From positions 129,692 through 193,691 of the forward strand of contig JAGMAD010000003.1 in assembly GCA_023130975.1 (NCBI GenBank): a DNA stretch of 64,000 nt, written 5' to 3'. The stretch comes from Candidatus Parcubacteria bacterium. Its GTDB lineage: Bacteria; Patescibacteriota; Minisyncoccia; Minisyncoccales; JAGMDC01. A program made the translations under genes and the position numbers. The notes under the pieces are model-generated. The model made no database searches. It worked only from the letters and a program-made list of their open reading frames with translations, and had not been told where the DNA came from. This document shows, piece by piece, positions 2,652 to 64,000 of the stretch (positions are counted from its first letter, which is position 1; every line of letters starts with the position of its first letter).

Positions 2652-3580
2652 TGACAAAGAAAATGATAATCTTAAAAAGATATATTAAAAATCCTATTCT
2701 TAAACCGATAAAAAACCATCATTGGGAAGAATACGTTTACAATTGTGCTGCAATAATCTTGGATAATAAGGTTCATATAGTTTATAGAGCTTTAAGCAGA
2801 GATAAAATATCAAGGCTTGGTTATGCATCAAGTAAAGATGGTTTTAAAATTGATGAAAGGTTAGAGAAACCAATTTTTGTCCCAGAATTAGAATCTGAAA
2901 AGCCAATGGTAAAGTTCAATAATTCTGGTATTGAAGACCCGAGATTAACAAGGATTGGTGACAGAATTTATATGCTTTATGCCGGCCTAAATGGTAGAAC
3001 AGCTCAATCATCTATGGCTTCTATTAAAGTTGAGGATTTTTTACAAAAGAAATGGAATTGGAAAAGGCATGGGGTTCTTTTCCCAAATATTGACGATAGA
3101 AATGCAGGTTTATTTCCAGAAAAGATAAATGGTAAATATGTCCTTTATACAAGGTTTATGCCAAATATTTGGGTAAGTTATTCAAGGGATTTGAAAAACT
3201 GGTCAAGGCCAAAAATAGTAATGAAACCAAGAAAAGGGATGTGGGATGAATACAAAATTGGCATAGCTGGACCTCCTCTAAGATTGAATAATTCTTGGCT
3301 ATTGATTTATCATGGAGTTGAACAAAAGCAAGCCGGAAGATTTGGAAGAGTCTACAGATTAGGATTCGCTTTAATAGACCTTAAAGACCCGGAAAAAATT
3401 TTATATAGATGTGAAAAACCAATTTTTGAACCAGTCAAGAATTATGAATTAAAAGGACAAGTTCCAAATGTGGTTTTTTCATGTGCTGCTGTTATTAAGG
3501 GAAAGACACTTTTTGTTTATTATGGTGGTGCCGACACTGTAATAGGGGTAGCTACTGCAGACATTTCTAAGCTTCTTTGA
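2651..3580 (+). CDS. GH130/DUF377-like glycosidase-related protein
   Basis: GIEDPRLTRIGDRIYMLYAG and overall beta-propeller-like composition are typical of DUF377/GH130. Confidence 0.45.
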   Translation: MTKKMIILKRYIKNPILKPIKNHHWEEYVYNCAAIILDNKVHIVYRALSRDKISRLGYASSKDGFKIDERLEKPIFVPELESEKPMVKFNNSGIEDPRLTRIGDRIYMLYAGLNGRTAQSSMASIKVEDFLQKKWNWKRHGVLFPNIDDRNAGLFPEKINGKYVLYTRFMPNIWVSYSRDLKNWSRPKIVMKPRKGMWDEYKIGIAGPPLRLNNSWLLIYHGVEQKQAGRFGRVYRLGFALIDLKDPEKILYRCEKPIFEPVKNYELKGQVPNVVFSCAAVIKGKTLFVYYGGADTVIGVATADISKLL

Positions 3581-3585
3581 AAAAT

Positions 3586-3620
3586 AAGAACCTGTCTCGC
3601 TTTGCTCGGCAGAACCTTGA
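3586..3620. repeat. AGAACCTTG-family small repeat unit (AAGAACCTG-N-CAGAACCTTGA)
   Basis: Same unit recurs at >=13 loci in the window (see findings). Confidence 0.6.
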
Positions 3621-3656
3621 TTTTCACGGCTACGCCGTGAAAATTAAAAAAAATAG

Positions 3657-3680
3657 CGGGAATTGATTTCCCGTTTTTTT
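3657..3680 (+). terminator. intrinsic terminator after the glycosidase gene
   Basis: Hairpin cgggaa-ttgat-ttcccg followed by TTTTTTT. Confidence 0.5.
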
Positions 3681-3686
3681 ATTTTG

Positions 3687-3770
3687 TGCCGGGGGAGGGA
3701 CTCGAACCCTCAAGCCCTTGCGGACAGTGGATTTTGAATCCACCCTGTTTACCAATTTCAGCACTCCGGC
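3687..3770 (-). tRNA. tRNA-Leu (anticodon CAA)
   Basis: Manual cloverleaf: acceptor GCCGGAG/CCCCGGC with one A.C mismatch, 3-bp D stem, anticodon loop TTCAAAA, long variable arm, T arm GAGGG-TTCGAGT-CCCTC, discriminator A. The ORF-track start at 3718 is spurious. Confidence 0.75.
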
Positions 3771-3799
3771 TCATTTTCAGTTTATCAAAAATCTCCCTT

Positions 3800-3828
3800 T
3801 TGTCAATTTTAAAATTTTATGTTATATT
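3800..3828 (+). promoter_or_regulatory. sigma70-like promoter TTGTCA-17-TATATT for parA (near-leaderless)
   Basis: -35 at 3800-3805 and -10 at 3823-3828. The ATG is at 3835, ~7 nt downstream. Confidence 0.4.
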
Positions 3829-3834
3829 AAATTA

Positions 3835-4599
3835 ATGACACGGATTATTTCCATCGCCAATCAGAAAGGCGGAGTTGGAAAATCAAATGTTGCAGTTAAT
3901 CTTCCGGTTTTTTTAAGCGCTAAGGGAAAGAAAGTTTTGTTAGTGGATATGGATCCTCAGGCAAATGCTACTTTGAGTTTAGGCATTAACTGCCGCAATT
4001 TGCCTCTTTCTATTTATAATGTTTTAATGGACCAGATTACTCCTTCAGCTATTATCAGGAAGACCTCGTTTTTTGGATATGATATTATGCCGGCTTCTCC
4101 GGATTTGGCTGGTGCTACTGTAGAATTAGTAGAAGCAAAAAATCGAGAGTTCAAATTAGCTCAAATTTTAAAAAAAGTTGAAGAACCATACGATTTTATT
4201 ATCATTGATTCTCCTCCGAGTTTAGGAATTCTAACCCTTAATACCTTAGTTGGTTCCAAAGAGGTTTTAATTCCGGTTCAATGCGAATATTTGGCTTTGG
4301 AAGGATTAGGACAACTTTTAGATACAATTGCCTTAGTGAAAAATAATCTTGGTCAAGATTTAAAAATTGCCGGCGCTCTATTAACAATGTATAATAGAAA
4401 AAATCGTCTTTCCAGGGACGTAGCTAAAGAAGTTAGAAGGAATTTTCCTGGCTATGTCTTTGACAGCGTTATTCCCAGAAGCGTGGCTTTAGCTGAAGCG
4501 CCCAAATATGGCCAGACCATTTTACAATATGCTCCCGGCTCTCAAGCAGCCAAGGCCTATAGAGAATTAGCCGAAGAACTTATCAACAGAAATGACTAA
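3835..4599 (+). CDS. parA: ParA/Soj chromosome-partitioning ATPase
   Basis: N-terminal KGGVGKS deviant Walker A and ParA-like length. Start placed at the ATG downstream of the tRNA. Confidence 0.85.
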   Translation: MTRIISIANQKGGVGKSNVAVNLPVFLSAKGKKVLLVDMDPQANATLSLGINCRNLPLSIYNVLMDQITPSAIIRKTSFFGYDIMPASPDLAGATVELVEAKNREFKLAQILKKVEEPYDFIIIDSPPSLGILTLNTLVGSKEVLIPVQCEYLALEGLGQLLDTIALVKNNLGQDLKIAGALLTMYNRKNRLSRDVAKEVRRNFPGYVFDSVIPRSVALAEAPKYGQTILQYAPGSQAAKAYRELAEELINRND

Positions 4600-18090: not shown

Positions 18091-18384
18091 ATGAGTTTAG
18101 ATGAAATCAAAAATTTAATAAAAATAGATGGGGGAAAGTTTATTATAGTGGAAAATGGGGAACCAGTATTAATGGTAATGAGTTTTGATGACTATAAAAA
18201 AATAATAGGGAATTCTGAAAAAATTTCTTCGCAACAGTCAAATTCTAATTCTGAAAAAGAAATCCCAGGAGCTCAAGAAGTTCAAGAATTTAATTCAGGG
18301 AGCGATAACGAATATGCAGAAACAGTTGAAAAAGCATCTCCCCAAACCGAGGAATCATTAAAAATTGAGGATTTGCCAGTTTGA
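18091..18384 (+). CDS. Phd/YefM-like antitoxin domain protein (orphan)
   Basis: N-terminal GEPVLMVMSFDDYKKI matches the Phd/YefM fold signature. The C-terminal half is acidic and low-complexity. Confidence 0.5.
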   Translation: MSLDEIKNLIKIDGGKFIIVENGEPVLMVMSFDDYKKIIGNSEKISSQQSNSNSEKEIPGAQEVQEFNSGSDNEYAETVEKASPQTEESLKIEDLPV

Positions 18385-22107: not shown

Positions 22108-22216
22108 TTTCCAGAATTTCTAATTTCTAATAAATTTCTAATTCTTTAATTTTTAATTGAAAATTGGAGCATTGAAAATTGATTGAAAATTGATAATTGA
22201 TAATTGAAAATTTATC
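22108..22216. repeat. heptamer tandem-repeat spacer: (AATTTCT)n then (ATTGAAA)n
   Basis: 7-bp periodic AT repeats between rplC and rplD. Confidence 0.6.
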
Positions 22217-24223: not shown

Positions 24224-24346
24224 AATAAATTTTCAATTTTCAATTTTCAATTTTCAATGAATTTTCAATGATTTAATTTTCAATTAGAAATTAAAGAATT
24301 AGAAATTTAATAGAAATTAGAAATTAGAAATTAGAAATTTTGGATT
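24224..24346. repeat. heptamer tandem-repeat spacer: (TTTTCAA)n then (AGAAATT)n
   Basis: Reverse-complement arrangement of the 22108-22216 element. Confidence 0.6.
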
Positions 24347-26653: not shown

Positions 26654-26659
26654 TAATAT

Positions 26660-26846
26660 AAGAACCTGCCTCGCTAATGCTCGGCAGAACCTTGATTCCT
26701 TCGGAATTAAGAACCTGCCTCGCCAATGCTCGGCAGAACCTTGATTCCTGCCTGTCGGCAAGGCAGGCGCTAATGTATAAATATATAAGAACCTGCCTCG
26801 CTAATGCTCGGCAGAACCTTGAATGCTTCGCATTTAATCTTGAATT
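26660..26846 (+). repeat. three tandem AGAACCTTG-family units forming a composite ~150-bp 5'-region shared with rpmE
   Basis: Units at 26660-26695, 26709-26744 and 26787-26822. The stretch 26709-26856 is ~95% identical to the reverse complement of 45450-45600. Confidence 0.75.
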
Positions 26847-43010: not shown

Positions 43011-43046
43011 AATTTTCAATTTTCAATTTTCAATTTTCAATTTTCA

Positions 43047-44453
43047 ATGAATTTTCAATTTTCAATTTTCAAACAAGCAATTTTATTTGTTCTTATATTA
43101 TTTTTGGTCTTACCTAGTTTTTTTCTATTAGCTGAAGAAGATTTAGAAGAAATCTGCCAGATAGAAAATATTGAGAAAAAAGAAAGCGAACTTTCCAAGG
43201 AAGATTACGAAGCTTTTTTAAAGAAATGCGAAGCATATTTTGTAGAAAAAAGCAAAGAGATTGAAAAGGATATCAATAAAACTGAAGCAGAGAAAAAGAC
43301 ATTGCAAAATAAAATTTATAGTTTAAGAAAAAAAATTCAAAACTTAAATTATAAAATCAATCAGAGCAATCTAATAATAAAAGACCTTGATTTACAAATT
43401 GGAGATACCCAGTTTTCCATAGAAGAAACCGGTTTAGAGATAGAAGATTTAAAGCAGAGATTAGTAAAACTTTTACGGCTTGTTTATGAAGAAGACCAAA
43501 AATCATTGATTGAGATTTTTCTTTCAGAAGAAGAAATCTCTGATTTCTTTGATAATTTGGTAGCATTGGAAATACTTAATTCTGAGAATCAAGAAATTTT
43601 AGATAATATTAAAAGCTTAAAATCTTATTTAGAAAATCAAAAAATATCCCTGGATGAAGAAAAGGAGGACAGAGAGAATACTCTTGCTGTTTATAATTTA
43701 CAAAAACAAGAAAATGCAGAAATAAAAAAAGAACAGGAATATTTTCTCAAATTAACTGAAAAAGAATATCAAAAGTATATTGCAGAGAAGGAAGAGACAG
43801 ATAAAACTGCTTCTGAGATAAGGGCTCGGATTTTTGAATTAGTCGGTGTTGTCAAAGCTCCTACTTTTGGCGAAGCATATGAATTAGCTAAGTATGTTCA
43901 GGGCATTACAGGAATTCGTCCTGCATTTTTGTTGGCGATTTTAACCCAGGAATCAAATATTGGTAAAAATGTTGGCCAATGTTATTTGAAAAATACAAAA
44001 ACAGGTGAGGGGATTTATATTAAAACAGGAAATACAGCTCCTAAGACAATGGGTCCTAAGAGTATTCCTAAGTTTTTGAACATTACCAAAGAGTTAGGAA
44101 GAGATCCTTATAGCACGCCTGTTTCCTGCTGTATGTATTACAAGGGCAAACCCTATGGCTGGGGAGGAGCAATGGGCCCAGCCCAGTTTATTCCTTCCAC
44201 TTGGGTTTTATATCAAGATAAAATAAGAGCAGTTACTGGAACTACTCCAGATCCTTGGAACATAAAAGACGCCTTTTTAGCGTCTGGTATTTATTTAAAA
44301 GAATTGGGCGGCAGTAGAAATGAATTTAAGGCAGCCATGCATTATTTTTCCGGAAGCACTTGGACTAAATATGAAGAATTTTACGGAAGGTCAGTAATAT
44401 CCTTAGCTGATAGATATGAAAAAGATATTGCTAAGCTTGAAAGCGAGAAGTAA
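43047..44453 (+). CDS. lytic transglycosylase (SLT domain) with an N-terminal signal/TM and coiled coil
   Basis: LTQESNIG (catalytic E-S) and GAMGPAQFIPSTW motifs. The N-terminal codons come from a (TTTTCAA)n repeat. Confidence 0.55.
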   Translation: MNFQFSIFKQAILFVLILFLVLPSFFLLAEEDLEEICQIENIEKKESELSKEDYEAFLKKCEAYFVEKSKEIEKDINKTEAEKKTLQNKIYSLRKKIQNLNYKINQSNLIIKDLDLQIGDTQFSIEETGLEIEDLKQRLVKLLRLVYEEDQKSLIEIFLSEEEISDFFDNLVALEILNSENQEILDNIKSLKSYLENQKISLDEEKEDRENTLAVYNLQKQENAEIKKEQEYFLKLTEKEYQKYIAEKEETDKTASEIRARIFELVGVVKAPTFGEAYELAKYVQGITGIRPAFLLAILTQESNIGKNVGQCYLKNTKTGEGIYIKTGNTAPKTMGPKSIPKFLNITKELGRDPYSTPVSCCMYYKGKPYGWGGAMGPAQFIPSTWVLYQDKIRAVTGTTPDPWNIKDAFLASGIYLKELGGSRNEFKAAMHYFSGSTWTKYEEFYGRSVISLADRYEKDIAKLESEK

Positions 44454-45459: not shown

Positions 45460-45600
45460 AATTCAAGATTAAATGCGAAGCATTCAAGGTTCTGCCAAGC
45501 GTTAGCGAGGCAGGTTCTTATATATTTATACATTAGCGCCTGCCTTGCCGACAGGCAGGAATCAAGGTTCTGCCAAGCGTTAGCGAGGCAGGTTCTTATA
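45460..45600 (-). repeat. inverted copy of the composite AGAACCTTG-unit 5'-region (see 26709-26846)
   Basis: ~95% identical to 26709-26856, including the ATGAAAAAAG start context. Confidence 0.75.
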
Positions 45601-45706
45601 TTATATATTAGCAATAATATTTCAAAAAATCAACCCCATAGTAGAAATTTTCACTATTGGGTTAACTCTTGATTATTTTTCAAAGTGATGATATATTATA
45701 ATTATT

Positions 45707-50181: not shown

Positions 50182-50283
50182 AAAGATGAAAGAAATAAGG
50201 AAAGTTCTTTGAAAATTTTTAGATTAAGAATTGAGTAAATTTAATTGGTTTTTTAGAGTTGTCCCGATTTTATTTGAGAGTTC

Positions 50284-50315
<32 letters not shown>

Positions 50316-50707
50316 GATAAGGCATGCAAGTCGAGGGGTCACCTTCGGGTGGCACCGGCAAACGGGTTAGTAACACGTGGATACATACCCTAAAGACTCG
50401 TATAACTCGGAGAAATCCGAGCTAATTCGAGATAGTCTGGTAGTCTATTTTTGGAAGTCAACTATAAGAATTTTTAATTTTCAATTTCTAATTTTTATTT
50501 AATTTCTAATTTTCAATGTTTAAAAAGCAACCCTACGGGGAATCCCGAACTTCATTCGGTCTAGAAATCATTAAAAATTTATTAAAAATTAAGAATTAGA
50601 AATTAGAAATTTTCTGCGTATTTAATAATAGATAAAGTTGATTTTTAGGAATAGGCTACCAGTAAAGGTTATACTTTGTATTTCCGCTTTGGGACTGGTC
50701 CGCGGCT

Positions 50708-50743
<36 letters not shown>

Positions 50744-52018
50744 GATGACGAGTAGGGGGCATGAGAGTGTGTTCCCCAACAATGGTACTGAGAACGGACC
50801 ATACTCCTACGGGAGGCAGCAGTCGAGAATATTGGGCAATGGGCGAAAGCCTGACCCAGCGACGCCGCGTGCGGGAAGAAGGTCTTCGGATTGTAAACCG
50901 CTTTTATTAAGGAACAATCCGCCAGTCGGCGGATGAGCGTACTTGATGAATAAGGAGCCGCTAATCACGTGCCAGAAGCGTCGGTAATACGTGAGCTCCA
51001 AGCGTTATCCGGATTTATTGGGCGTAAAGCGTCCGTAGGCGGTTTGAAAAGTCTTTGGTTAAATCCTAGGGCTTAACCTTTGGACTGTCAAAGATACTTT
51101 CAGACTAGAGGGTGTTAGAGGCTGATGGAACGGTCGGTGTAGGGGTGAAATCCGTTGATATCGACCGGAACACCGAAAGCGAAGGCATTCAGCTAGTGCA
51201 ACCCTGACGCTGAGGGACGAAAGCGTGGGTAGCGAATGGGATTAGATACCCCAGTAGTCCACGCTGTAAACTATGGACACTAGCTATTGGTAGTGTCGAC
51301 CCTATCAGTGGCGAAGCTAACGCGTTAAGTGTCCCGCCTGGGAAGTACGAGCGCAAGCTTAAAACTCAAAGGAATAGACGGGGACTCACACAAGCGGTGG
51401 ATCATGTGGCTCAATTCGACGATAAACGAAGAACCTCACCAGGGCTTGACATGCTAGTGAAATCCCGACGAAAGTTGGGACTACCCACAAGGACACTAGC
51501 ACAGGTGCTGCATGGTTGTCGTCAGCAGGTGTCGTGAGACGCTCCTTTTAATAGGGAAACCTGCGCAACCCTTGCCCTATGTTTTACTTGTCATAGGGGA
51601 CTGCCCGGGATAACTGGGAGGAAGGTGAGGATAACGCCAAATCAGCATGGCCCTTTGATGCCCTGGGCTGCACACATGATACAATGGCCGGTACAATGGG
51701 CTGCTTAACCGCAAGGCGAAGCAAATCCCTTAAAGCCGGTCCCAGTTCGGATTGAGGTCTGCAACTCGACCTCATGAAGCCGGAATCGCTAGTAATCGCC
51801 AATCAGCTATGTGGCGATGAATATGTTCCTGAGTCTTGTACTCACTGCCCGTCACACCAAGAGAGCTGGCAGTACCCGAAACCCCCCACCACTTTTCGTG
51901 AAGATATTTAGATTAAGAAGAATTTTTGAAAAAGTCTATTTTAAATTCTTTTGACGGTTTATAATTCATGAAAAGTGGTGGGGGGCTAAGGTAAGGTCAG
52001 TAATATGGGTGAAGTCGT

Positions 52019-52821
52019 AGATGTAATCTACTTGTTGCGACTCTTGAAAGGCAACTTTCAGGAAAAAACTTGGCTATATGCTGGAACATCTGTGTTATAA
52101 TAGAGTAATATGAGTAAAAGTTTATACGCAGACAATCAGCAGGGAAGTCTCCGCCAGCTGGCGGATGACCCCTCAGAGACTACACGCCGAGCCCCTCTTT
52201 CTAAAAGAGAAATTCAATCTTATTTTCTTGGAGCTATACATGATGGAACATTTAGTAGTAATCAAAGATTTCGAATTTCACAGAAAGGTACCCAATGGCT
52301 TAAATTTTTACAAAAACTTTTTGGCAAACTCGGTTACAATTCATGGATTTATAAAGAAGGTAAAAACAGAAAAGTTTATGTGTTAGAAACTTTAGCAGAT
52401 TTTTTAGATTTCAGATTTGATCCTTCGCGATTAAATACAAAAGAAGAAAAGATTGGTTACATAAAAGGATTTTTCGATGCCGAAGGTGGCATTCCTAGAG
52501 ATCACAAAGCAAGATTTTATATTCAGTTGACCCAGAATGATGAAGAAAAGCTCAAAAAATTAAAAGTAATGCTTAGTGATTTAGGAATAAAAACAGGAAA
52601 AATTCATAACCCAAGCCAAAAAGTAGATCCTGATTATTGGAGAATGTATGTTTTAGCAGGTTCACAAAAAACATTCGTAGAAAAAATAGGATCATGGCAT
52701 CCAAGAAAGATAAGAACCTTGAATCAAAGATTCAAGAACCTTGATTCCTTCGGGATTAAAAATTTTAGAAAAGAGGGTGAAGATATAGTCCATGCTCTAT
52801 AGCGATATAGGGACAAATATG
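52019..52821 (+). mobile_element. group I-type intron in the 16S gene (between E. coli-equivalent U1498 and A1499)
   Basis: The 5' exon ends ...GAAGTCGT, the intron ends with G, and the 3' exon resumes AACAAGG. The intron carries a LAGLIDADG ORF. Confidence 0.65.
52110..52802 (+). CDS. LAGLIDADG homing endonuclease (intron-encoded)
   Basis: Two LAGLIDADG-like motifs, FLGAIHDGTF and IKGFFDAEGGI. Confidence 0.7.
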   Translation: MSKSLYADNQQGSLRQLADDPSETTRRAPLSKREIQSYFLGAIHDGTFSSNQRFRISQKGTQWLKFLQKLFGKLGYNSWIYKEGKNRKVYVLETLADFLDFRFDPSRLNTKEEKIGYIKGFFDAEGGIPRDHKARFYIQLTQNDEEKLKKLKVMLSDLGIKTGKIHNPSQKVDPDYWRMYVLAGSQKTFVEKIGSWHPRKIRTLNQRFKNLDSFGIKNFRKEGEDIVHAL

Positions 52822-56926: not shown

Positions 56927-57048
56927 CCTTTTGCTTCGCAAAAGGAATTTCTAATTTCTAATTTCCAATCAATTTCTAATTTTCATTGAAAATTCTAAAA
57001 TTGAAAATTTAATGAAAATTGAAAATTGAAAATTGAAAATTAAATTTT
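56927..57048. repeat. terminator-like hairpin plus heptamer spacer: (AATTTCT)n then (ATTGAAA)n
   Basis: ccttttgc-ttcg-caaaagg followed by 7-bp periodic repeats. Confidence 0.55.
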
Positions 57049-57438
57049 ATGCCGCGTATTGCTGGGGTTAATATCCCGGAAAACAAACAAATAGAAATTG
57101 CTTTAACCTATATTTATGGAATAGGTTCGTCTTTGGCTATAAAAATTTTAGCAGAAGCCAAAATTGATCCTTATAGTCAGACCTCAAAGCTAACTCCAGA
57201 ACAAATTAATTTACTTAGAGAAATTATTGAAAAGAATTATAAAATTGAAGGAGATCTCCGACGGGAGAGAATGGTGGCTATAAAACGGCTGAAAGATATT
57301 GGTTGTTTAAGAGGAATTCGCCACATCAAGGGTTTACCAGTAAGAGGCCAAAGAACTAAAAGCAATAGTAGAACTATTCGCGGTAATGTGAGAAAAACAG
57401 TTGGTAGCGGAAGAAAGCCTGCTCCAACACCAAAGTAA
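57049..57438 (+). CDS. rpsM: 30S ribosomal protein S13
   Basis: MPRIAGVNIPENKQIEIALTYIYGIG. Confidence 0.85.
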   Translation: MPRIAGVNIPENKQIEIALTYIYGIGSSLAIKILAEAKIDPYSQTSKLTPEQINLLREIIEKNYKIEGDLRRERMVAIKRLKDIGCLRGIRHIKGLPVRGQRTKSNSRTIRGNVRKTVGSGRKPAPTPK

Positions 57439-57439
57439 T

Positions 57440-57892
57440 ATGGGTAAGAAACGTATTATTCAAAAAACTGAAAAAGAGTTGATTGAAGAAAGAGAAAAAG
57501 TAGAGGCAGCTGTAAAAAAAGAAGCAAAAATTCAACCTTCTAAAAAAGTGAAAGAAGGTAGAGTTTGTATTACTTCCTCTTATAATAATACGATTATTAG
57601 TTTAACTGATTTAGAGGGAAATATTTTAACTTGGGCAAGCGCTGGAAATATTGGCTTCAAGGGAACAAAAAAAGCCACTCCTTTTGCTGCTTCAAAAGTG
57701 GCTGAGGCATTGGTTCAGCGGGCTAGAAAAATAGGAATAGAGAGAGTGCAAATAATGGTAAAAGGTATTGGCAGCGGCAGAGATTCAGCCATTAGAGCAT
57801 TAGCTAACAAAGGTCTTGATATTCTATCTATTGAGGATGTTACGCCTATACCTCATAACGGATGCAGGCCTCGAAAAGCACGGAGAGTGTAA
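57440..57892 (+). CDS. rpsK: 30S ribosomal protein S11 with a Lys-rich N-terminal extension
   Basis: S11 core from GRVCITSSYNNTIISLTD. Confidence 0.85.
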   Translation: MGKKRIIQKTEKELIEEREKVEAAVKKEAKIQPSKKVKEGRVCITSSYNNTIISLTDLEGNILTWASAGNIGFKGTKKATPFAASKVAEALVQRARKIGIERVQIMVKGIGSGRDSAIRALANKGLDILSIEDVTPIPHNGCRPRKARRV

Positions 57893-57897
57893 ATTTT

Positions 57898-58527
57898 ATG
57901 GAAACTGATAAATGTAAAATTTGTCGCCGGGCAGGAGTTAAACTTTTTTTAAAAGGGGAACGTTGTTTTTCTCCGAAATGCGCAATGATAAAAAAACCTT
58001 ATTCGCCGGGAAGGAAACTGAAAAGAAAAGTTCGGACTCTTTCTGAATATGGAAAAGAATTAAAAGAAAAACAGAAGCTTAAGAATTGGTATAATTTAAA
58101 AGAGGAACAATTTAGCAAATATGTGAAAAAGGCATTGGAAAAAAGAGGAAAAGTAGAGGATGCTGGAACTTTTCTTATAAAAGAATTGGAGAGCCGTTTT
58201 GATAATGTAATTTTCAAATTAGGCTGGGCTTCTTCCCATTCTCAAGCTCGTCAAATGATTTCTCATAAACATTTTTTAGTTAATGGAAAAATAGTTAATA
58301 TACCTTCTTATAGATTAAAAAAAGGAGACAAAATCACTATTCGTCCTTCTTCTCTTAAATTAAATATTTTTCAGAATCTTCCCACTGTTTTAAAAAAATA
58401 TCAACCTCCTTCTTGGTTAGAGCTTAATTTAGAAAAGATAGAAGGAGAAGTTAAAGAAGAACCCTTAGTAGAAGAATCAGATTTACCAGCTGAAATTTCT
58501 ATAATCTTTGAATATTATTCAAGGTAA
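57898..58527 (+). CDS. rpsD: 30S ribosomal protein S4 (zinc-ribbon type)
   Basis: CKICRRAG...CFSPKC. Confidence 0.85.
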   Translation: METDKCKICRRAGVKLFLKGERCFSPKCAMIKKPYSPGRKLKRKVRTLSEYGKELKEKQKLKNWYNLKEEQFSKYVKKALEKRGKVEDAGTFLIKELESRFDNVIFKLGWASSHSQARQMISHKHFLVNGKIVNIPSYRLKKGDKITIRPSSLKLNIFQNLPTVLKKYQPPSWLELNLEKIEGEVKEEPLVEESDLPAEISIIFEYYSR

Positions 58528-58664
58528 AATTTTAAAAATTTTCAATTTTCAATTTTCAATTTTCATTAAATTTTCAATTAACTAATTTTCAATGAATTAT
58601 TTAGAAATTGAATCATTAGAAATTTAATAAAAATTAGAAATTAGAAATTAGAAATTTAATTTGT
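58528..58664. repeat. heptamer spacer: (TTTTCAA)n then (AGAAATT)n
   Basis: Same composite as 24224-24346. Confidence 0.6.
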
Positions 58665-59462
58665 ATGATTTCTTTACCCGACAAAATAAAAGTTATTGAA
58701 AAAAAAGATAATTGGGCCCGTTTTCAAATCCAAGCCCTTTATCCTGGTTATGGAGTTACTATTGGAAATAGTTTGAGAAGGGTTCTTCTTTCCTCATTAC
58801 AGGGGGCAGCTGTTACCCAGGTAAAAATTAAGGGAGTTTCTCATGAGTTCTCTGTTATTCCCGGTGTCTTAGAAGATATAGTTTCAATTTTATTAAACTT
58901 AAAACAATTGAGATTTAAAGTTTATGGTGATGAACCACAGAAGGCAGTTCTTTCGATAAAAGGTGAAAAAAAAGTGAAAGGTTCTGATTTTCAACTGCCC
59001 TCTCAATTGTCTTTAATAAACAAAGATGCTTTTGTGGTTACCTTGACTGATAAGAAAGCGGAATTAGAAATGGAGATTTTAGTCGAGAAAGGATTTGGTT
59101 ATGAACCAGTAGAATGGAGAAAAAAAGAAAAGTTAGAAATAGGTGAAATTCCTCTTGATGCTATTTTTACTCCAGTGAGAAAGGTTAGTTTTAATGTAGA
59201 GAATGTTAGAGTAGAGGAGAGAACAGATTTTGATAGTTTAGAGTTAGGGATTGAGACCGATGGAACCATTACTCCGGAACAAGCTCTTTTTCAGGCCTCT
59301 GAAATTTTAGTTAATCACTTTTCTTTATTTGTAGATATCTTTAAGGAAAAAGAGACAACAAAGCCGCCAGAAGCCGAAAAACCAGTAAAAAAGAAGAAAT
59401 CTACAAAGGCAAAAACTAAAACTACGATACAAAAGAAAAAAAAGAAAACACAAAAGAAATAA
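58665..59462 (+). CDS. rpoA: RNA polymerase alpha subunit with an N-terminal domain only and a Lys-rich tail
   Basis: NTD motifs (GYGVTIGNSLRRVLLSSLQGAAVT, HEFSVIPGVLEDIVSILLNLK). It ends at 265 aa with KKKKSTKAKTKTTIQKKKKKTQKK instead of an alphaCTD. Confidence 0.75.
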   Translation: MISLPDKIKVIEKKDNWARFQIQALYPGYGVTIGNSLRRVLLSSLQGAAVTQVKIKGVSHEFSVIPGVLEDIVSILLNLKQLRFKVYGDEPQKAVLSIKGEKKVKGSDFQLPSQLSLINKDAFVVTLTDKKAELEMEILVEKGFGYEPVEWRKKEKLEIGEIPLDAIFTPVRKVSFNVENVRVEERTDFDSLELGIETDGTITPEQALFQASEILVNHFSLFVDIFKEKETTKPPEAEKPVKKKKSTKAKTKTTIQKKKKKTQKK

Positions 59463-59487
59463 CAGATATTTAGAAATCTACAGTATT

Positions 59488-59838
59488 ATGCGTAAACAAA
59501 AAGAAGGACGAAAACTTTCAAGAAAAAAAAGTCAAAGAAGTGCCTTATTAAAAACACTGGCTAGTGCTCTTATTTTAAATGAGAAAATAAAAACCACTGA
59601 AGCCAAAAGCAAAGAAGTTTCTAAATTTGTTGAGAAAAAAATTACTAAAGCAAAAAAAGGTGATTTAACTGCCAGGAGATTATTAAGTCAATCTTTTTCT
59701 CCTAAAATAGTCAAGAAACTTGTAGATGAGATTGGGCCAAGATATAAAGAGAGAAAAGGAGGGTACACTCGGATTATAAAATTAGTACCAAGAAAGAGTG
59801 ATGGAGCAAGAATGGCAATAATTGAATTTGTAAAATAA
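59488..59838 (+). CDS. rplQ: 50S ribosomal protein L17
   Basis: L17 pattern. Confidence 0.8.
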
Positions 59839-59842
59839 TTTT

Positions 59843-60190
59843 ATGGAAAGAAATACTCACACAATTGATGCAACAGACAAGGTATTAGGGAGATTAGCCA
59901 CTCAGATAGCGGTGCTGTTGCGTGGTAAGCACAAACCTGATTTTGTTCCCTATAAAGATATGGGAGATTTTGTTGTGGTAAAAAATGTTGATAAAATTAA
60001 AATTACTGGTAAAAAAATGGAGCAAAAAGTTTATTACCATCACAGCGGTTTTTTGGGCGGTTTGAAAGAAACTCCTCTTAAAAAACTTTTAAAAGAAAAA
60101 CCTGAAGAAGTCTTAAAAAAAGCGGTTTTTGGAATGCTGCCGAAGAATAAACTACGCAGTAAGATAATAAAGCGTTTAAAGATTAAGTAA
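59843..60190 (+). CDS. rplM: 50S ribosomal protein L13
   Basis: L13 pattern ([20 protein letters not shown]). Confidence 0.85.
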
Positions 60191-60195
60191 TTTTT

Positions 60196-60744
60196 ATGGA
60201 AAAAAAGAAACCAAAAAAAAATCCGTCATCCGCCAGCCGGCGGAGCGGAAAAAAAGAAAAGAAAAAAGAAGTTAAAAAAATAAAAAAAGTGATCCCTAAA
60301 ACAGTTGAGAAGAAACCCAAACCCAAACCCAAACTTACACCAAAACCCAAAAAAGCTTCTTACATAGAAGCAATTGGAAGAAGAAAGACATCAGTGGCTC
60401 GAGTGCGTCTTTGGACAAAAGGGGAAAAAGAGTTTTTAGTTAATAATAAACCATTAGAGGATTATTTTCCAAATCTTGAGATTCAGAAAATTGCTGCTGA
60501 TAGTTTAGATAAAATGAAAAGCCAGGACAGATTTAAAATCCAGGTTTTAGTAAAAGGAGGAGGTTTTCATTCTCAAGCTGAGGCAGTGAGGCATGGGGTA
60601 GCTCGGATTTTACTTAAATTTAATCCTGATTTTAAAAAACGTTTAAAAAAATCGGGTTTTTTAACCCGAGATCCCAGAATGAGAGAAAGAAAAAAATTCG
60701 GTCTCAAAAGAGCCCGTCGAGCTCCCCAGTGGAGAAAACGGTAA
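60196..60744 (+). CDS. rpsI: 30S ribosomal protein S9 with a Lys/Pro-rich N-terminal extension
   Basis: S9 core (GRRKTSVARVRLW...GGGFHSQAEAVRHGVARIL). Confidence 0.85.
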   Translation: MEKKKPKKNPSSASRRSGKKEKKKEVKKIKKVIPKTVEKKPKPKPKLTPKPKKASYIEAIGRRKTSVARVRLWTKGEKEFLVNNKPLEDYFPNLEIQKIAADSLDKMKSQDRFKIQVLVKGGGFHSQAEAVRHGVARILLKFNPDFKKRLKKSGFLTRDPRMRERKKFGLKRARRAPQWRKR

Positions 60745-60745
60745 T

Positions 60746-61420
60746 ATGTTAACAGAAATCATAGATAAATTTTATTTGGAGCAGCAAAAAAGCAGGGAAC
60801 AGAATCATTTTTATATTACTGATGTAGGCAAATGTCCTCGGGCAGTTTTTTTTAAATTTAAAAACGTGCCTAGAGAAAAAATGGATGCCCGCATTTTAAG
60901 AATATTTGAACGTGGAGAGTCAATGCATATGAATATTATTAATACCTTGATTAGATTAGGTATTGTGGTGGCAGCGGAAATAAAAATCCCTGCTCAAGAA
61001 ATCATTTCCGGCCGAGCTGATGTAATTCTTTCTTTAAATAACGAACTTTATGTCTTAGATATTAAAAGTATGAATAGTATGATTTTTAGAAATTTAACTG
61101 AACCAAAGCCAGAAAATTTACAACAGGTCCAGCTTTATCTTCATTATTTTAAAATTAAAAAAGGGATATTACTTTACATTGACAAAGACCAGCAAAACAT
61201 AAAAGAATTTGTCTTTAATTATGACTCAAAGCTTGTGAAATCACTTTTAGATGATTTTCAAAAACTTAAAACAAAAATTGATTCTGATACTATTCCCCCA
61301 AAATTATTAGATTGGTCTGAAAATTGGCAGTGTCGATACTGCCAATTTAAAGATATTTGTTCAGAGGTCGGAGAAGGAGATCTCCATTGGAATGGTTTTA
61401 AAAATAAGTTAGAGAGCTAA
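60746..61420 (+). CDS. Cas4-like / RecB-family PD-(D/E)xK nuclease with a 4-Cys cluster (stand-alone)
   Basis: N-terminal Cys (GKCPRAVFFK), motif II D (GRADVIL), motif III LDIKS, QxxxY (QVQLYLHY), and C-terminal CRYCQFKDIC (CxxCx5C). Confidence 0.55.
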   Translation: MLTEIIDKFYLEQQKSREQNHFYITDVGKCPRAVFFKFKNVPREKMDARILRIFERGESMHMNIINTLIRLGIVVAAEIKIPAQEIISGRADVILSLNNELYVLDIKSMNSMIFRNLTEPKPENLQQVQLYLHYFKIKKGILLYIDKDQQNIKEFVFNYDSKLVKSLLDDFQKLKTKIDSDTIPPKLLDWSENWQCRYCQFKDICSEVGEGDLHWNGFKNKLES

Positions 61421-62822
61421 ATTGTAAAACATTTTCTTCAGTAAGCAGATAGAGGTTTTTGTTTTTATTATCCCAATTTAATTTTTTAATTTCTGAGCAT
61501 AAATCATAGTCATTAATCTTGTCTCGTTCATCAATTTCGATGACTTTTATTTTACTTTCTAAATTAAATATCAAATAATGGGGATTAAACCAGAAAACAT
61601 CATCAATTTTTTCTGAGAAACGGGTTAGAAATTGTTTAGACAAAGCTTCTTTTCGCGGCTGTTCTGTTTGGGCTTCTAAAAATAAAATCCAGATTTCATG
61701 TTCGTTAAAATAAAGAATTTTTTTAGCATCAGGGGATATTTTAATTTCTTTTACTGGTTCAAAAATTTTTTCAAAATTTTTTGTCTCTGGATTAAACAAA
61801 TACAAATTTTTATCTTCTAAAATAAAAATAAAACCCTGTTCAACTTTTAATTCGTATTTGGTTTCTTGTTTTAAGGAGAAAGGAGAATTGCTCATTTTTT
61901 CTTCAAATTCAAAAGATAGATTGTTTTTAAAAATATAACCAGATTCATCAATATAATAAATACTATTCTCTAAAATTTTGTAAGTAAGTAGACCCTTTAA
62001 AACGCATTGAGAACCGTTCTCGGCACGTTTTGATAAGTCGGCTTCGAACAAATCACCATCTTTAAAATAAAATATTATGCTTGGCTCTTCAGGATGAAAA
62101 TCAAGTTTTTCAATATCTGGTTCTAAAATTAAAGAATCAAGAGAGATCAATTTATTTGGACTTTCAGTTAGATCTAAAATAAAGTGTTCTAATTGCTCTT
62201 TGAGGCCTATTTTTAAAATCACTCTTTCCCCATTAGGAGAAATTTTGAGTTCTAACAATTCTGGTTCTTTTTTAGAAATTTCTTTTTCACTAATTAAATG
62301 GCTCTTAAGATTGTTTTCTAAATTAAATATTTTTAAAGCCCATTCATCCTTGTCCGCCGAAGCTTCAGCGAAGGCGGATTCTTTCAAAATTATTTTGTTC
62401 TCAGACAAAATCCAAAAATCTTCTACCCCTTTATTTAAAATTTGGAGTTCTAAATTTTTAGGAATAAGAATAATATTTTTTGCTTCTGCTACTTCTTTTT
62501 CTTTTACTTCTAAGTTCTTTTCCCAGACATTATAACCCTCTTTTTGAACTTGAATGTTATATTTTTTTGGCAAAAGATTATTAATATAGACAGAACCAAA
62601 AAAGAAACTAGTTTTTTCTTCTAGCCTTCCATCTAAAAATACCTCAACATTTTTCGGTGAAGCTTTTAAAAACAATCCACCAGTTTGAGTGATTTTTATT
62701 CCGCCGTCTGGCGGATTAAAATCAAAACGATAACCCTGGGAATATAAAATCAGAATAGGGGTAATCAAAAAAAACAAAGATATTAAAACACAAATTAGAA
62801 TTGTTCTGCTTTTTTTAGACAT
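61398..62822 (-). CDS. secreted PEGA-domain protein with a beta-rich periplasmic region
   Basis: N-terminal TM, then GYRFDF...VEVFLDG...YNIQVQKEGY PEGA-like motif. Confidence 0.4.
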   Translation of the reverse strand: MSKKSRTILICVLISLFFLITPILILYSQGYRFDFNPPDGGIKITQTGGLFLKASPKNVEVFLDGRLEEKTSFFFGSVYINNLLPKKYNIQVQKEGYNVWEKNLEVKEKEVAEAKNIILIPKNLELQILNKGVEDFWILSENKIILKESAFAEASADKDEWALKIFNLENNLKSHLISEKEISKKEPELLELKISPNGERVILKIGLKEQLEHFILDLTESPNKLISLDSLILEPDIEKLDFHPEEPSIIFYFKDGDLFEADLSKRAENGSQCVLKGLLTYKILENSIYYIDESGYIFKNNLSFEFEEKMSNSPFSLKQETKYELKVEQGFIFILEDKNLYLFNPETKNFEKIFEPVKEIKISPDAKKILYFNEHEIWILFLEAQTEQPRKEALSKQFLTRFSEKIDDVFWFNPHYLIFNLESKIKVIEIDERDKINDYDLCSEIKKLNWDNKNKNLYLLTEENVLQFSSLTYF

Positions 62823-62973
62823 TGATTTAATTTTCCTTAATTACATTATATCCCGGCATTGACAAAAAGCAAACCATTTGCTATGCTTACAATTAGCGAG
62901 GGTCTGCCGTTTTTTAGGCAAGCCGATGAGCTGTACATTTAGAAGTAAATAATAGAAGAAAGAAAAGAAATAG

Positions 62974-63327
62974 GTGAAAAAAATGATAAAAGTGAATATT
63001 TCGGCAGAAGTGGGTATTTGGGGAAAAGAGATAGTAGATATAGATATAACAGAAATAGCAAGGATAGAGACGCGAGAAGACATAAAGAATTGTTTGTTAG
63101 AAAGGCAGTGGAACGCACTTGTCTCAGGAGAGAATACGAGGACAGTGTTTAGACAAACGACAGTATCAAGAAGGTCGGGAGAGGGAGAGTTAGAAATAGA
63201 ACCAAGAATAGTGGAAGTTTACACAAGAGGAGACCATATAGGTGGATTGAAAATAAATGGAGATGGGACAAAACCGGAACTCCTTAGTGGGATACCAGCG
63301 ATATCTGATGTTTTTATCTGGAGATAA
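62974..63327 (+). CDS. hypothetical protein in a purine-skewed block
   Basis: SD-like GGTGA upstream. The coding strand is extremely A+G rich. Confidence 0.3.
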   Translation: MKKMIKVNISAEVGIWGKEIVDIDITEIARIETREDIKNCLLERQWNALVSGENTRTVFRQTTVSRRSGEGELEIEPRIVEVYTRGDHIGGLKINGDGTKPELLSGIPAISDVFIWR

Positions 63328-63340
63328 GGACATAAAAGGA

Positions 63341-63523
63341 ATGAGACAAAAAATGGAAGAAGAGATAATAGAGGTAGAGATTATTTCCCTTGGAGCGAAG
63401 CGACTTGGCAATAATATATATGGAGAGCAAGTGCAATGCCCAGTTTGCAGGAGAGAGTACCCTATGTCATCGATACCACGTGAATGCGAATGTAAGAGAC
63501 AGCTTATACTACCGCGAAATTAG
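63341..63523 (+). CDS. small CxxC protein in the purine-skewed block
   Basis: MRQKMEEEIIEVE...CPVCRREY...CECK. The ORF-track version starts earlier at 63257. Confidence 0.3.
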   Translation: MRQKMEEEIIEVEIISLGAKRLGNNIYGEQVQCPVCRREYPMSSIPRECECKRQLILPRN

Positions 63524-63604
63524 AAAAGGAGTAAAAGCCGTGCCTGGCTTAAAATAAGGCAGATGATAAAAATGAGATAAAAAGGAGGAGATAAAAAGAA
63601 AAAA

Positions 63605-64000
63605 ATGGGAGAATTTGAAGAGTTGATGGAAAAGAGAGATAAAGAATATAGTGATGGAAATTGGAAGGAATCCATTCCTTTTGCAACAGCAGCAATAAGT
63701 GTCGCAATACAAGCAACAGCGCTTGCTCAAAATGGAAGAGCTTGGGGTAGAAGATATGTTGGATATAAAACAGATGATCCGCAAGAGAGAGAAACCATGT
63801 ATAGATTGGCAAGACAAGACTGGAGAGCAGTGTTGAAAACATCTACCAATATAGATACCAGAATATCAGCGATAAAGGGACTCATGTTACTTCCGGAAGA
63901 GAATATTCCGGAACTGTGTGAGTTAGGGATAAGAGAAATCAAATTACGGATTCCAGAATATCAAAGAAGAGAAAACATAAAAGCAGAGTTGCTGAATTCA
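63605..64000 (+). CDS. hypothetical HEAT-like repeat protein, 3'-truncated at the window edge
   Basis: GGAGG lies 15 nt upstream and the frame is open to the window end. The protein is helical and repeat-like. Confidence 0.25.
   Translation, partial: MGEFEELMEKRDKEYSDGNWKESIPFATAAISVAIQATALAQNGRAWGRRYVGYKTDDPQERETMYRLARQDWRAVLKTSTNIDTRISAIKGLMLLPEENIPELCELGIREIKLRIPEYQRRENIKAELLNS

Follow-up and report, generated by a model that had tools for sequence, protein, structure and literature searches.

A stand-alone Cas4-family nuclease gene at the end of a ribosomal protein operon in Parcubacteria

The locus

We examined a 64,000-nucleotide (nt) stretch of the genome of a Candidatus Parcubacteria bacterium (GenBank assembly GCA_023130975.1, contig JAGMAD010000003.1, positions 129,692 to 193,691 of the forward strand), hereafter the window, with attention to a gene for a 224-amino-acid (aa) protein that lies directly behind a block of ribosomal protein genes. 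A reading of the letters alone (the original prediction) had described this gene as a stand-alone Cas4-like nuclease and had suggested that it might mark the boundary of a mobile element. The gene belongs to the Cas4 family and keeps the family's motifs, has no cas genes beside it, holds its place from genome to genome, is under purifying selection and is absent from phage collections at more than 29% identity.

The features discussed below are collected in Table 1. The gene preceding the nuclease is rpsI (Pfam Ribosomal_S9), whose TAA stop codon ends at position 60744, leaving a spacer of a single nucleotide before the nuclease ATG. On the other side, a convergent gene with a borderline PEGA match shares 23 bp with the 3' end of the nuclease gene; it is part of the conserved neighbourhood, but not of the same transcript.

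Table 1. Features of the window (positions are those of the 64,000-nt stretch).
Feature	Position	Strand	Remarks
Ribosomal block rpsM-rpsK-rpsD-rpoA-rplQ-rplM-rpsI, upstream of the nuclease gene	57049..60744	+	Same strand as the nuclease; Pfam labels on the identical contig L001
Solo Cas4-family PD-(D/E)XK nuclease gene	60746..61420	+	ATG start, 224 aa plus stop codon
Cys30 codon, N-terminal ligand of the predicted Fe-S cluster (GKCPRAV)	60833..60835	+	Aligned with the CPRRV cysteine of SSO0001
Asp92 codon, motif II (GRAD)	61019..61021	+	Aligned with GRAD of SSO0001
Asp105-Ile-Lys107 codons, motif III (D/E)xK	61058..61066	+	SSO0001 counterpart EIK
Gln127...Tyr131 codons, QxxxY motif	61124..61138	+	Aligned with QLQIY of SSO0001
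Cys196-x-x-Cys199-x5-Cys205 codons, C-terminal predicted Fe-S ligands	61331..61360	+	Aligned with CKYCIFSVIC of SSO0001
Convergent syntenic gene, 474 aa, borderline PEGA match	61398..62822	-	PEGA 20.7 bits against a cutoff of 20.8
Purine-skewed block, small open reading frames without family matches	~62970-64000		GC skew 0.3-0.5, AT skew ~0.3
(AATTTTC)n heptamer tracts, examples	22155-22212, 24228-24339, 43011-43072, 50469-50523, 56985-57041, 58537-58593

Family assignment and conserved motifs

We are highly confident of the family assignment taken by itself: the protein passes the profile threshold for the Cas4 family (Pfam PF01930 / COG1468) and carries RecB-type catalytic motifs together with four conserved cysteines. 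Two Pfam models scored above their gathering cutoffs, PDDEXK_1 (PF12705) at an E-value of 2.8e-7 (31.2 bits, cutoff 22) and Cas_Cas4 (PF01930) at 1.5e-5 (25.6 bits, cutoff 22.7). The strongest library matches were the phage families PHROG 1706 (‘CRISPR/Cas system associated’, 1.9e-34) and PHROG 1990 (‘Cas4-domain exonuclease’, 1.2e-28), and the PADLOC Cas4 models matched at 4e-15, with otherwise just weak matches to DruK (3e-4) and Cas1g (3e-3). As a single-sequence query the protein matched one entry in the PDB, 4IC1, which is the Cas4 protein SSO0001 of Sulfolobus solfataricus, over its full length (4e-11); a profile from 42 divergent relatives recovered 4IC1 at 6.8e-23, 4R5Q, a Cas4 of Pyrobaculum, at 2.9e-10, and after these MGME1 and Exo5. 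An AlphaFold2 model of the nuclease (mean predicted local distance difference test score, pLDDT, 79.5) again had 4IC1 as its top Foldseek match, with the Cas4-family protein ACE1, MGME1 and the Cas4 of a Cas4-Cas1-Cas2 complex also ranking high; this fold search was used for rank-order support only.

The motifs read in the open reading frame (ORF), with codon positions checked on the raw sequence, are GKC30PRAV, GRAD92VIL, LD105IK107S, Q127VQLY131LHY and C196RYC199QFKDIC205. We followed their conservation in an alignment of 32 close homologs (A1, 61-88% identity) and another of 42 divergent cluster representatives (A2, 24-54% identity). All four cysteines, D92, D105, K107, Q127 and Y131 were invariant in A1; D92, K107, Q127, Y131, C196 and C199 remained invariant in A2, where C30 and C205 were kept in at least 90% of the sequences. 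Position 105 is Asp in the close family and Glu in the consensus of the distant relatives, as in the classical (D/E)xK motif, and a family-specific C-terminal tail contains W215 and K219, both invariant across A1. Chance does not account for the motif pattern: the protein clears the gathering cutoffs of PDDEXK_1 and Cas_Cas4, and its homologs keep the same motif residues. The original prediction had recognised a Cas4/RecB-type PD-(D/E)xK layout, and the Pfam, PDB and fold searches agree with it: each motif that it quoted lies at the residues given and is conserved, the four cysteines are retained in homologs to the extent just described, and the Pfam comparison that it had proposed returned Cas4 and PDDEXK_1 and no other family.

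A solo-Cas4 without CRISPR partners

Scans with Tandem Repeats Finder (TRF) and for direct repeats found no array resembling clustered regularly interspaced short palindromic repeats (CRISPR) in the window, and an Rfam search over the same 64 kb returned 16S rRNA and tRNAs only. No cas or defence gene was found with Pfam among the 40 non-ribosomal ORFs outside the ribosomal block at 21.5-34.4 kb. The functions matched among these 40 ORFs were of the housekeeping kind only, including ParA/ParB, RelA/SpoT, EF-G, EF-Tu, pyruvate phosphate dikinase (PPDK), fructose bisphosphatase (FBPase), RF2, S2, EF-Ts and AlaRS. Within these 64 kb the nuclease gene lies in no cas operon and near no array, and in its relatives the neighbours are rpsI and the PEGA-like gene; most related loci leave no room for a CRISPR array or a cas gene. 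The nuclease is a solo-Cas4, with no CRISPR partner.

Attachment to the ribosomal operon across species

To place the window gene among its relatives we used a species scan with one genome per GTDB species, which gave at least 191 encoding loci; synteny counts come from the best 80 of these, which belong to Nealsonbacteria, Staskawiczbacteria, Gribaldobacteria, Minisyncoccales and other Parcubacteria. The closest of the 80 is a Ca. Nealsonbacteria metagenome-assembled genome (MAG; L007), whose nuclease is 94% identical. Of the 69 loci that have 1.5 kb or more of sequence upstream, rpsI ends no more than 200 nt before the nuclease in 43 and no more than 4 kb before it in 61, and the exact junction of the window, a stop codon plus 1 nt, is common to 11 loci. 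Downstream, 61 of the 72 loci with at least 1.5 kb of sequence on that side carry the convergent PEGA-like gene, at a median identity of just 39%. On contigs of 290-785 kb, the genes for homologs with 62-69% identity stand at the same chromosomal place as the window gene. The order that they share runs rpsM-rpsK-rpsD-rpoA-rplQ-rplM-rpsI, nuclease and a convergent gene of 430-470 aa, then murA/mreB/holB/frr, and the order from the ribosomal block to the nuclease is seen in the relatives L004 and L005 and in 61 of the 69 species loci.

The 1-nt spacer, with the stop codon directly before the ATG, makes co-transcription of rpsI and the nuclease likely. On the + strand no terminator-like site was found from position 56945 to the nuclease gene. 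Matches to sigma-70-like promoters were no commoner than in shuffled sequence, which leaves the promoter scan uninformative about an internal promoter. Judging from the junction and from the lack of a terminator-like site upstream, the most likely arrangement is that the nuclease shares a transcript with rpsI and that its translation is coupled to that of rpsI.

The spacer itself varies among relatives. In L007 a non-coding insert of 537 nt (3464-4000 of that locus), partly GC-rich and self-complementary, separates rpsI from the nuclease, in place of the 1 nt of the window, and in about eight related loci the gap measures 270-730 nt. Compared with Rfam, the L007 insert gave no credible match, and with that result and the 1-nt spacer of the window we rejected a conserved non-coding RNA between the two genes.

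Ribosomal protein S9 has an N-terminal Lys/Pro-rich extension of ~55 aa (60196-60360; KKPKKNPSS…KPKPKPKLTPKPKK). The DNA that encodes it is purine-rich and of low complexity, and the extension differs in length in the closest genome, L007. RpoA (58665-59462) has just 265 aa. It matches the models for the N-terminal and insert domains (RNA_pol_L and RNA_pol_A_bac), gives no match to the alpha C-terminal domain and finishes with a Lys-rich tail (…KKKKSTKAKTKTTIQKKKKKTQKK); the relative L004 encodes a 310-aa RpoA with RNA_pol_A_CTD.

Evolution of the nuclease

The nuclease evolves at the pace of its ribosomal neighbours. Over 54 genomes its mean pairwise p-distance was 0.366, compared with 0.351-0.385 for S9, L13, L17 and RpoA, and the ratio of non-synonymous to synonymous substitution rates (dN/dS) between the window and its two closest genomes was 0.105 and 0.117, next to 0.102 for rplM. 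Median identity to the window copy was 63%, against 39% for the PEGA-like neighbour. Distances among the nucleases were correlated with ribosomal-protein distances (Mantel rho 0.22, reached in 0/999 permutations), and vertical descent dominates. The nuclease is a conserved core gene, vertically maintained, of a Parcubacteria/Paceibacteria clade that includes Nealsonbacteria, Staskawiczbacteria, Gribaldobacteria and relatives.

The wider family extends well beyond this clade. More than 1,500 word-sharing matches were nearly all 224-260 aa in length and nearly all from Patescibacteria/Parcubacteria, and an exhaustive profile search gave 5,307 cluster representatives at E<=1e-3, only 53 of them at E<=1e-30. 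A full-length homolog with 47% identity is encoded on a Woesearchaeota MAG contig (JAIYOV010000022.1, L090 5001-5696), hence in the DPANN archaea, among archaeal-type genes such as that for RNase HII and one with a faint TrmB match. Such identity across domains is unusually close, and is consistent with the transfer between DPANN and the candidate phyla radiation (CPR) proposed in 2017. A 45%-identical chromosomal homolog precedes the convergent gene and mreB-holB-frr, but has no rpsI linkage. At 35-37% identity the relatives lie on contigs resembling phages or mobile genetic elements (MGEs), beside PolB/ThyA, beside integrase and methyltransferase, or among strings of small ORFs. The broader family takes in phage exonucleases, and the clade of the window gene is chromosomal and core. 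No relative above 29% identity was found among deposited phages (INPHARED) or in IMG/VR.

Position relative to the variable region

About 1.5 kb beyond the nuclease begins a purine-skewed block, whose ORFs are one of 117 aa, another of 88 aa that contains the motif CxxC…CxC, and a third, of 232 aa, of which the start is included. Past the first ~146 nt after the PEGA-like gene this block is absent from the two closest genomes (L007 and L008), and it is a genuine variable region, specific to the strain, that lies between the PEGA-like gene and the genes for a major facilitator superfamily (MFS) protein and MurA. The conserved PEGA-like gene separates the block from the nuclease. There is no compositional break at the nuclease gene, and no integrase or phage gene was found among the 40 Pfam-scanned non-ribosomal ORFs of the window. 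Synteny on both flanks, together with the unbroken composition, rules out a mobile-element boundary at the gene, and a recent phage origin is ruled out as well, the INPHARED and IMG/VR relatives all being at or below 29% identity. Flanked by core genes, the nuclease is not an exonuclease encoded on an MGE or phage, although its profile similarity to PHROG 1706/1990 is still strong.

These results divide the original prediction. Its account of the surroundings stands: the nuclease directly follows the ribosomal operon and overlaps the PEGA-like gene (itself a borderline match) convergently by 23 bp, and the TRF, direct-repeat, Rfam and Pfam scans detected, as it had said, neither CRISPR array nor cas genes in 64 kb. 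Its suggestion of a phage or anti-defence gene at a mobile boundary fails, since both flanks are syntenic across dozens of species and the gene evolves like its ribosomal neighbours. The purine-skewed block that it had pointed to is indeed variable, but the boundary does not fall at the nuclease, because the PEGA-like gene intervenes.

Proposed function and alternatives

For the function as a whole, we put at about even the chance that the protein is a housekeeping solo-Cas4 that processes DNA ends and is produced constitutively from the ribosomal operon. In a RecB-like PD-(D/E)XK fold, Asp92, Asp105 and Lys107 would hold the catalytic Mg2+ or Mn2+, and Gln127 and Tyr131 would form the DNA-binding QxxxY motif, while Cys30 and Cys196/199/205 are predicted to clamp the N- and C-terminal segments round an iron-sulfur (Fe-S) cluster. 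By comparison with characterised Cas4 proteins, DNA would most probably be cleaved by a 5'->3' single-stranded DNA (ssDNA) exo/endonuclease activity. Coupling to rpsI would make expression constitutive and keep it in step with growth, alongside the ribosomal proteins. The most likely role would then be to process DNA ends or flaps, producing the 3' overhangs from which RecA-dependent recombination, repair or replication restart could proceed. Analogy with characterised Cas4 and with the homologous nuclease domains of AddB, RecB and Dna2 suggests this role, and the occurrence of relatives in phage replication/recombination modules is consistent with it. The operon linkage and the ribosomal-like rate point to a constitutive, growth-coupled function rather than to inducible defence.

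Several points weigh against this interpretation. The repair role would follow purely from homology and context. The NCBIfam cas4 equivalog TIGR00372 matched end to end at 47.9 bits, under its cutoff of 65, which also places the protein outside CRISPR-associated Cas4 as scored by that model. Residues 20-39, around Cys30, have pLDDT below 50, so that the N-terminal cysteine region is poorly modelled, and TM-scores to 4IC1 and other Cas4 structures reach only ~0.4, a modest value that we attribute to the poor modelling of the Fe-S/N-terminal region. The correlation of 0.22 is weaker than that of the ribosomal proteins among themselves (rho 0.48-0.75), and exchange within the clade or saturation of the signal is possible. 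The 80 loci are the best matches, so that their identity range is biased upwards. A solo-Cas4 of Methanosarcina mazei prefers supercoiled double-stranded DNA and is induced in stationary phase (PMC12501428), preferences which indicate that substrate specificity is not simply transferable between members of the Cas4 family. Full-text literature searching, finally, gave nothing relevant on the absence of RecBCD, AddAB or RecFOR from CPR bacteria.

We consider a role in defence unlikely, in which the protein, as a stand-alone or accessory nuclease, would degrade invading phage or plasmid DNA, possibly together with restriction-modification (R-M), Argonaute-like or other systems elsewhere in the genome. 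Hudaiberdiev et al. raised defence as one option, and solo-Cas4 genes of DPANN sometimes adjoin R-M genes (PMC5704561). The Cas4-family protein ACE1, one of our top structural matches, is reported to cooperate with a prokaryotic Argonaute (pAgo) (PMC12094033), and the PADLOC result, Cas4 models and a weak DruK match, can be read in the same direction. A distant relative (L108) adjoins a DNA methyltransferase gene, but it does so in an integrase-bearing mobile element and at an identity of just ~35%. No defence gene was found in the scans of the 64 kb or in the conserved neighbourhood, and a gene with ribosomal-protein-like conservation, a dN/dS of 0.10 and a fixed position does not resemble the typical defence gene, which has a patchy distribution and is carried on an island. 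Constitutive expression with growth from a ribosomal operon would also suit a metabolic role, that of a cytoplasmic exonuclease turning host DNA, or DNA imported through com genes and type IV pili, into mononucleotides for salvage. CPR bacteria lack de novo nucleotide synthesis, and com-mediated DNA uptake has been proposed as their nucleotide source (PMC10633639); the same enrichment of solo-Cas4 is seen in nucleotide-auxotrophic DPANN archaea. Yet comEC is dispensable for growth in the cultured Saccharibacterium S. epibionticum (PMC10633639), no salvage genes are linked to the nuclease gene in the syntenic loci, and Fe-S Cas4 enzymes are known for end processing rather than bulk degradation (PMC5704561), and we think salvage quite improbable.

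That the best profile matches are Cas4 models might instead suggest CRISPR adaptation in trans, serving a CRISPR-Cas locus at some other genomic site. The distribution of the gene largely refutes this: CRISPR-Cas is reported in only ~2.4% of Parcubacteria/Microgenomates, as against a nuclease gene in at least 191 species-level genomes, and a CRISPR-bearing Nealsonbacterium is reported to have a dedicated cas4 inside its own CRISPR locus. With the sub-cutoff TIGR00372 score, and with the gene never beside cas1/cas2 in the window or the syntenic loci, adaptation in trans has very little probability. We give equally little to an RNA-processing nuclease in ribosome biogenesis, removing for example the insertions typical of CPR rRNAs. 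The linkage to ribosomal proteins and a 205-nt insertion in the 16S rRNA of the window would fit such a role, RNA cleavage is known from some PD-(D/E)XK enzymes, and the fold search listed bunyavirus cap-snatching and tRNA-splicing endonucleases at low rank; but the close characterised relatives (Cas4, MGME1, Exo5, AddB/RecB) are all DNA nucleases, phage relatives lie in DNA replication modules, and unrelated housekeeping genes are common in ribosomal operons. Least probable of all is a gene derived from a phage or mobile element at an island boundary, acting for instance in anti-defence or as a phage recombination exonuclease. It could appeal to PHROG 1706 and 1990 as the strongest library matches, to the relatives at 35-37% identity on phage- or MGE-like contigs and to the variable block starting ~1.5 kb downstream. 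For the window locus the synteny already refutes it, both flanks being core genes across species, and the lack of a compositional break, the ceiling of 29% identity to phage and IMG/VR relatives, purifying selection equal to that on rplM and the position of the variable block beyond the conserved PEGA-like gene all speak against it too.

A bolder form of the housekeeping end-processing role would make this solo-Cas4, essential and co-expressed with ribosomal proteins, the main DNA-end resection or processing nuclease of a large Parcubacteria clade and of the DPANN archaea that carry the 47% homolog, in place of RecBCD/AddAB-type machines, and would make phage and CRISPR Cas4 proteins its offshoots. 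We hold this form to be doubtful, if conceivable.

Other features of the window

The 16S rRNA gene (50270-52037) measures 1768 nt and aligns with all 1533 positions of the bacterial model; its 205-nt insertion lies at about 50448-50652, near model position 188. The rRNA genes are unlinked, as no 23S rRNA gene comes after the 16S gene. At a distance of 72 nt beyond the 16S 3' end there is instead an ORF of 230 aa resembling LAGLIDADG_3 homing endonucleases (52110-52802).

Two classes of repeat occur in the window. A GC-rich palindromic repeat of 42 nt, with the core AACCTGCCTCGCTAATGCTCGGCAGAACCTTGA, is found three times in direct orientation inside the ribosomal protein operon, where it occupies the 190-nt spacer that separates rpmC (L29) from rpsQ (S17), at 26659-26827, and twice in inverted orientation between prfB and rpsB (45479-45601). 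Its RNA fold has a z-score of -5.5, and it was not found in any of 107 related loci. Because its spacing is irregular (49 and 78 nt), we regard it as resembling repetitive extragenic palindromes (REP) or miniature inverted-repeat transposable elements (MITE) rather than CRISPR. Tandem heptamers (AATTTTC)n, in either orientation, occupy many intergenic spacers, including those before rpsM and rpoA; a two-unit probe had 20 matches in the window against 0.93 expected by chance. They could serve as promoter, UP-element or curved-DNA sequences. As candidates for a hidden CRISPR array, these short AT-rich heptamers and the palindromic repeat, with its 3+2 copies at irregular spacing, were rejected.

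In the spacer region between the genes for EF-G and EF-Tu, with AT-rich heptamer repeats on both sides, a 97-aa ORF (18091-18384) has a sub-threshold match to Phd/YefM antitoxins (24.9 bits, cutoff 29.8). No partner toxin was identified for it.

Comparison with known systems

Cas4 is usually regarded as a CRISPR adaptation factor. Here a nuclease of that family behaves as a core housekeeping gene in organisms that almost never carry CRISPR-Cas, and the clade is well suited to studying, free of any CRISPR role, the functions of Cas4 nucleases. The question also touches the ultra-small symbionts of the CPR and of DPANN, which have close homologs in common, and the way in which they maintain or recycle DNA with minimal means of repair. 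For annotation, genes of this kind should not be taken as evidence of CRISPR-Cas, of a phage or of an island boundary.

The nearest of the known groups is the solo-Cas4 of CPR and DPANN. Solo-Cas4 is encoded in many CPR genomes, Parcubacteria among those named (Hudaiberdiev et al. 2017, BMC Evol Biol 17:232, PMC5704561), is over-represented in CPR and DPANN, and includes CPR proteins that group with DPANN homologs; the genes evolve mainly vertically, and for their uncharacterised role repair or defence was suggested (PMC5704561). The window gene falls into this group by its CPR host genomes, its synteny, a significant though modest Mantel correlation and the 47% relative in Woesearchaeota. It shares with the group the full set of PD-(D/E)XK motifs and four cysteines, the position outside cas loci, the small-genome host and the DPANN relative, and as a member of the group it shows no difference in kind. 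What we add is that the gene is joined, in a conserved manner, to the rplM-rpsI ribosomal operon at its 3' end and that it evolves at a ribosomal-protein-like rate. Neither point is mentioned in PMC5704561, where the word ‘ribosomal’ occurs 0 times in the main text, and full-text literature searching found no other paper on an rpsI/ribosomal-operon linkage or on the evolutionary rate of solo-Cas4.

Of the structurally characterised proteins, SSO0001 (4IC1) and Pcal_0546 (4R5Q) are the best matches, the cysteine of the CPR motif, GRAD, (E/D)IK, QxQxY and CxxCx5C all being aligned. These enzymes are metal-dependent 5'->3' ssDNA exonucleases with Fe-S clusters (PMC5704561). The window protein differs from them in an identity of only ~27%, a bacterial mesophilic host, the lack of CRISPR context and its W215/K219 tail. 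It has the architecture and size of the phage Cas4-like/RecB exonucleases (PHROG 1706 and 1990; for example of Thermus phage phiYS40, Moorella phage MTATph1 and Streptomyces phages), but, unlike these, to which as deposited in phage collections and IMG/VR it is at most 29% identical, it is chromosomal, syntenic and flanked by core genes. With the nuclease domains of AddB, RecB, AdnAB and Dna2 and with MGME1 and Exo5 it has the PD-(D/E)XK core in common, and MGME1, Exo5, AdnAB, AddAB and RecBCD were among its fold or profile matches. AddB, Dna2 and Exo5 have the same kind of Fe-S ‘staple’ architecture. The window nuclease is a single 224-aa domain with no fused or adjacent helicase, and its similarity to these nuclease domains and exonucleases is remote (E 1e-3 to 1e-6).

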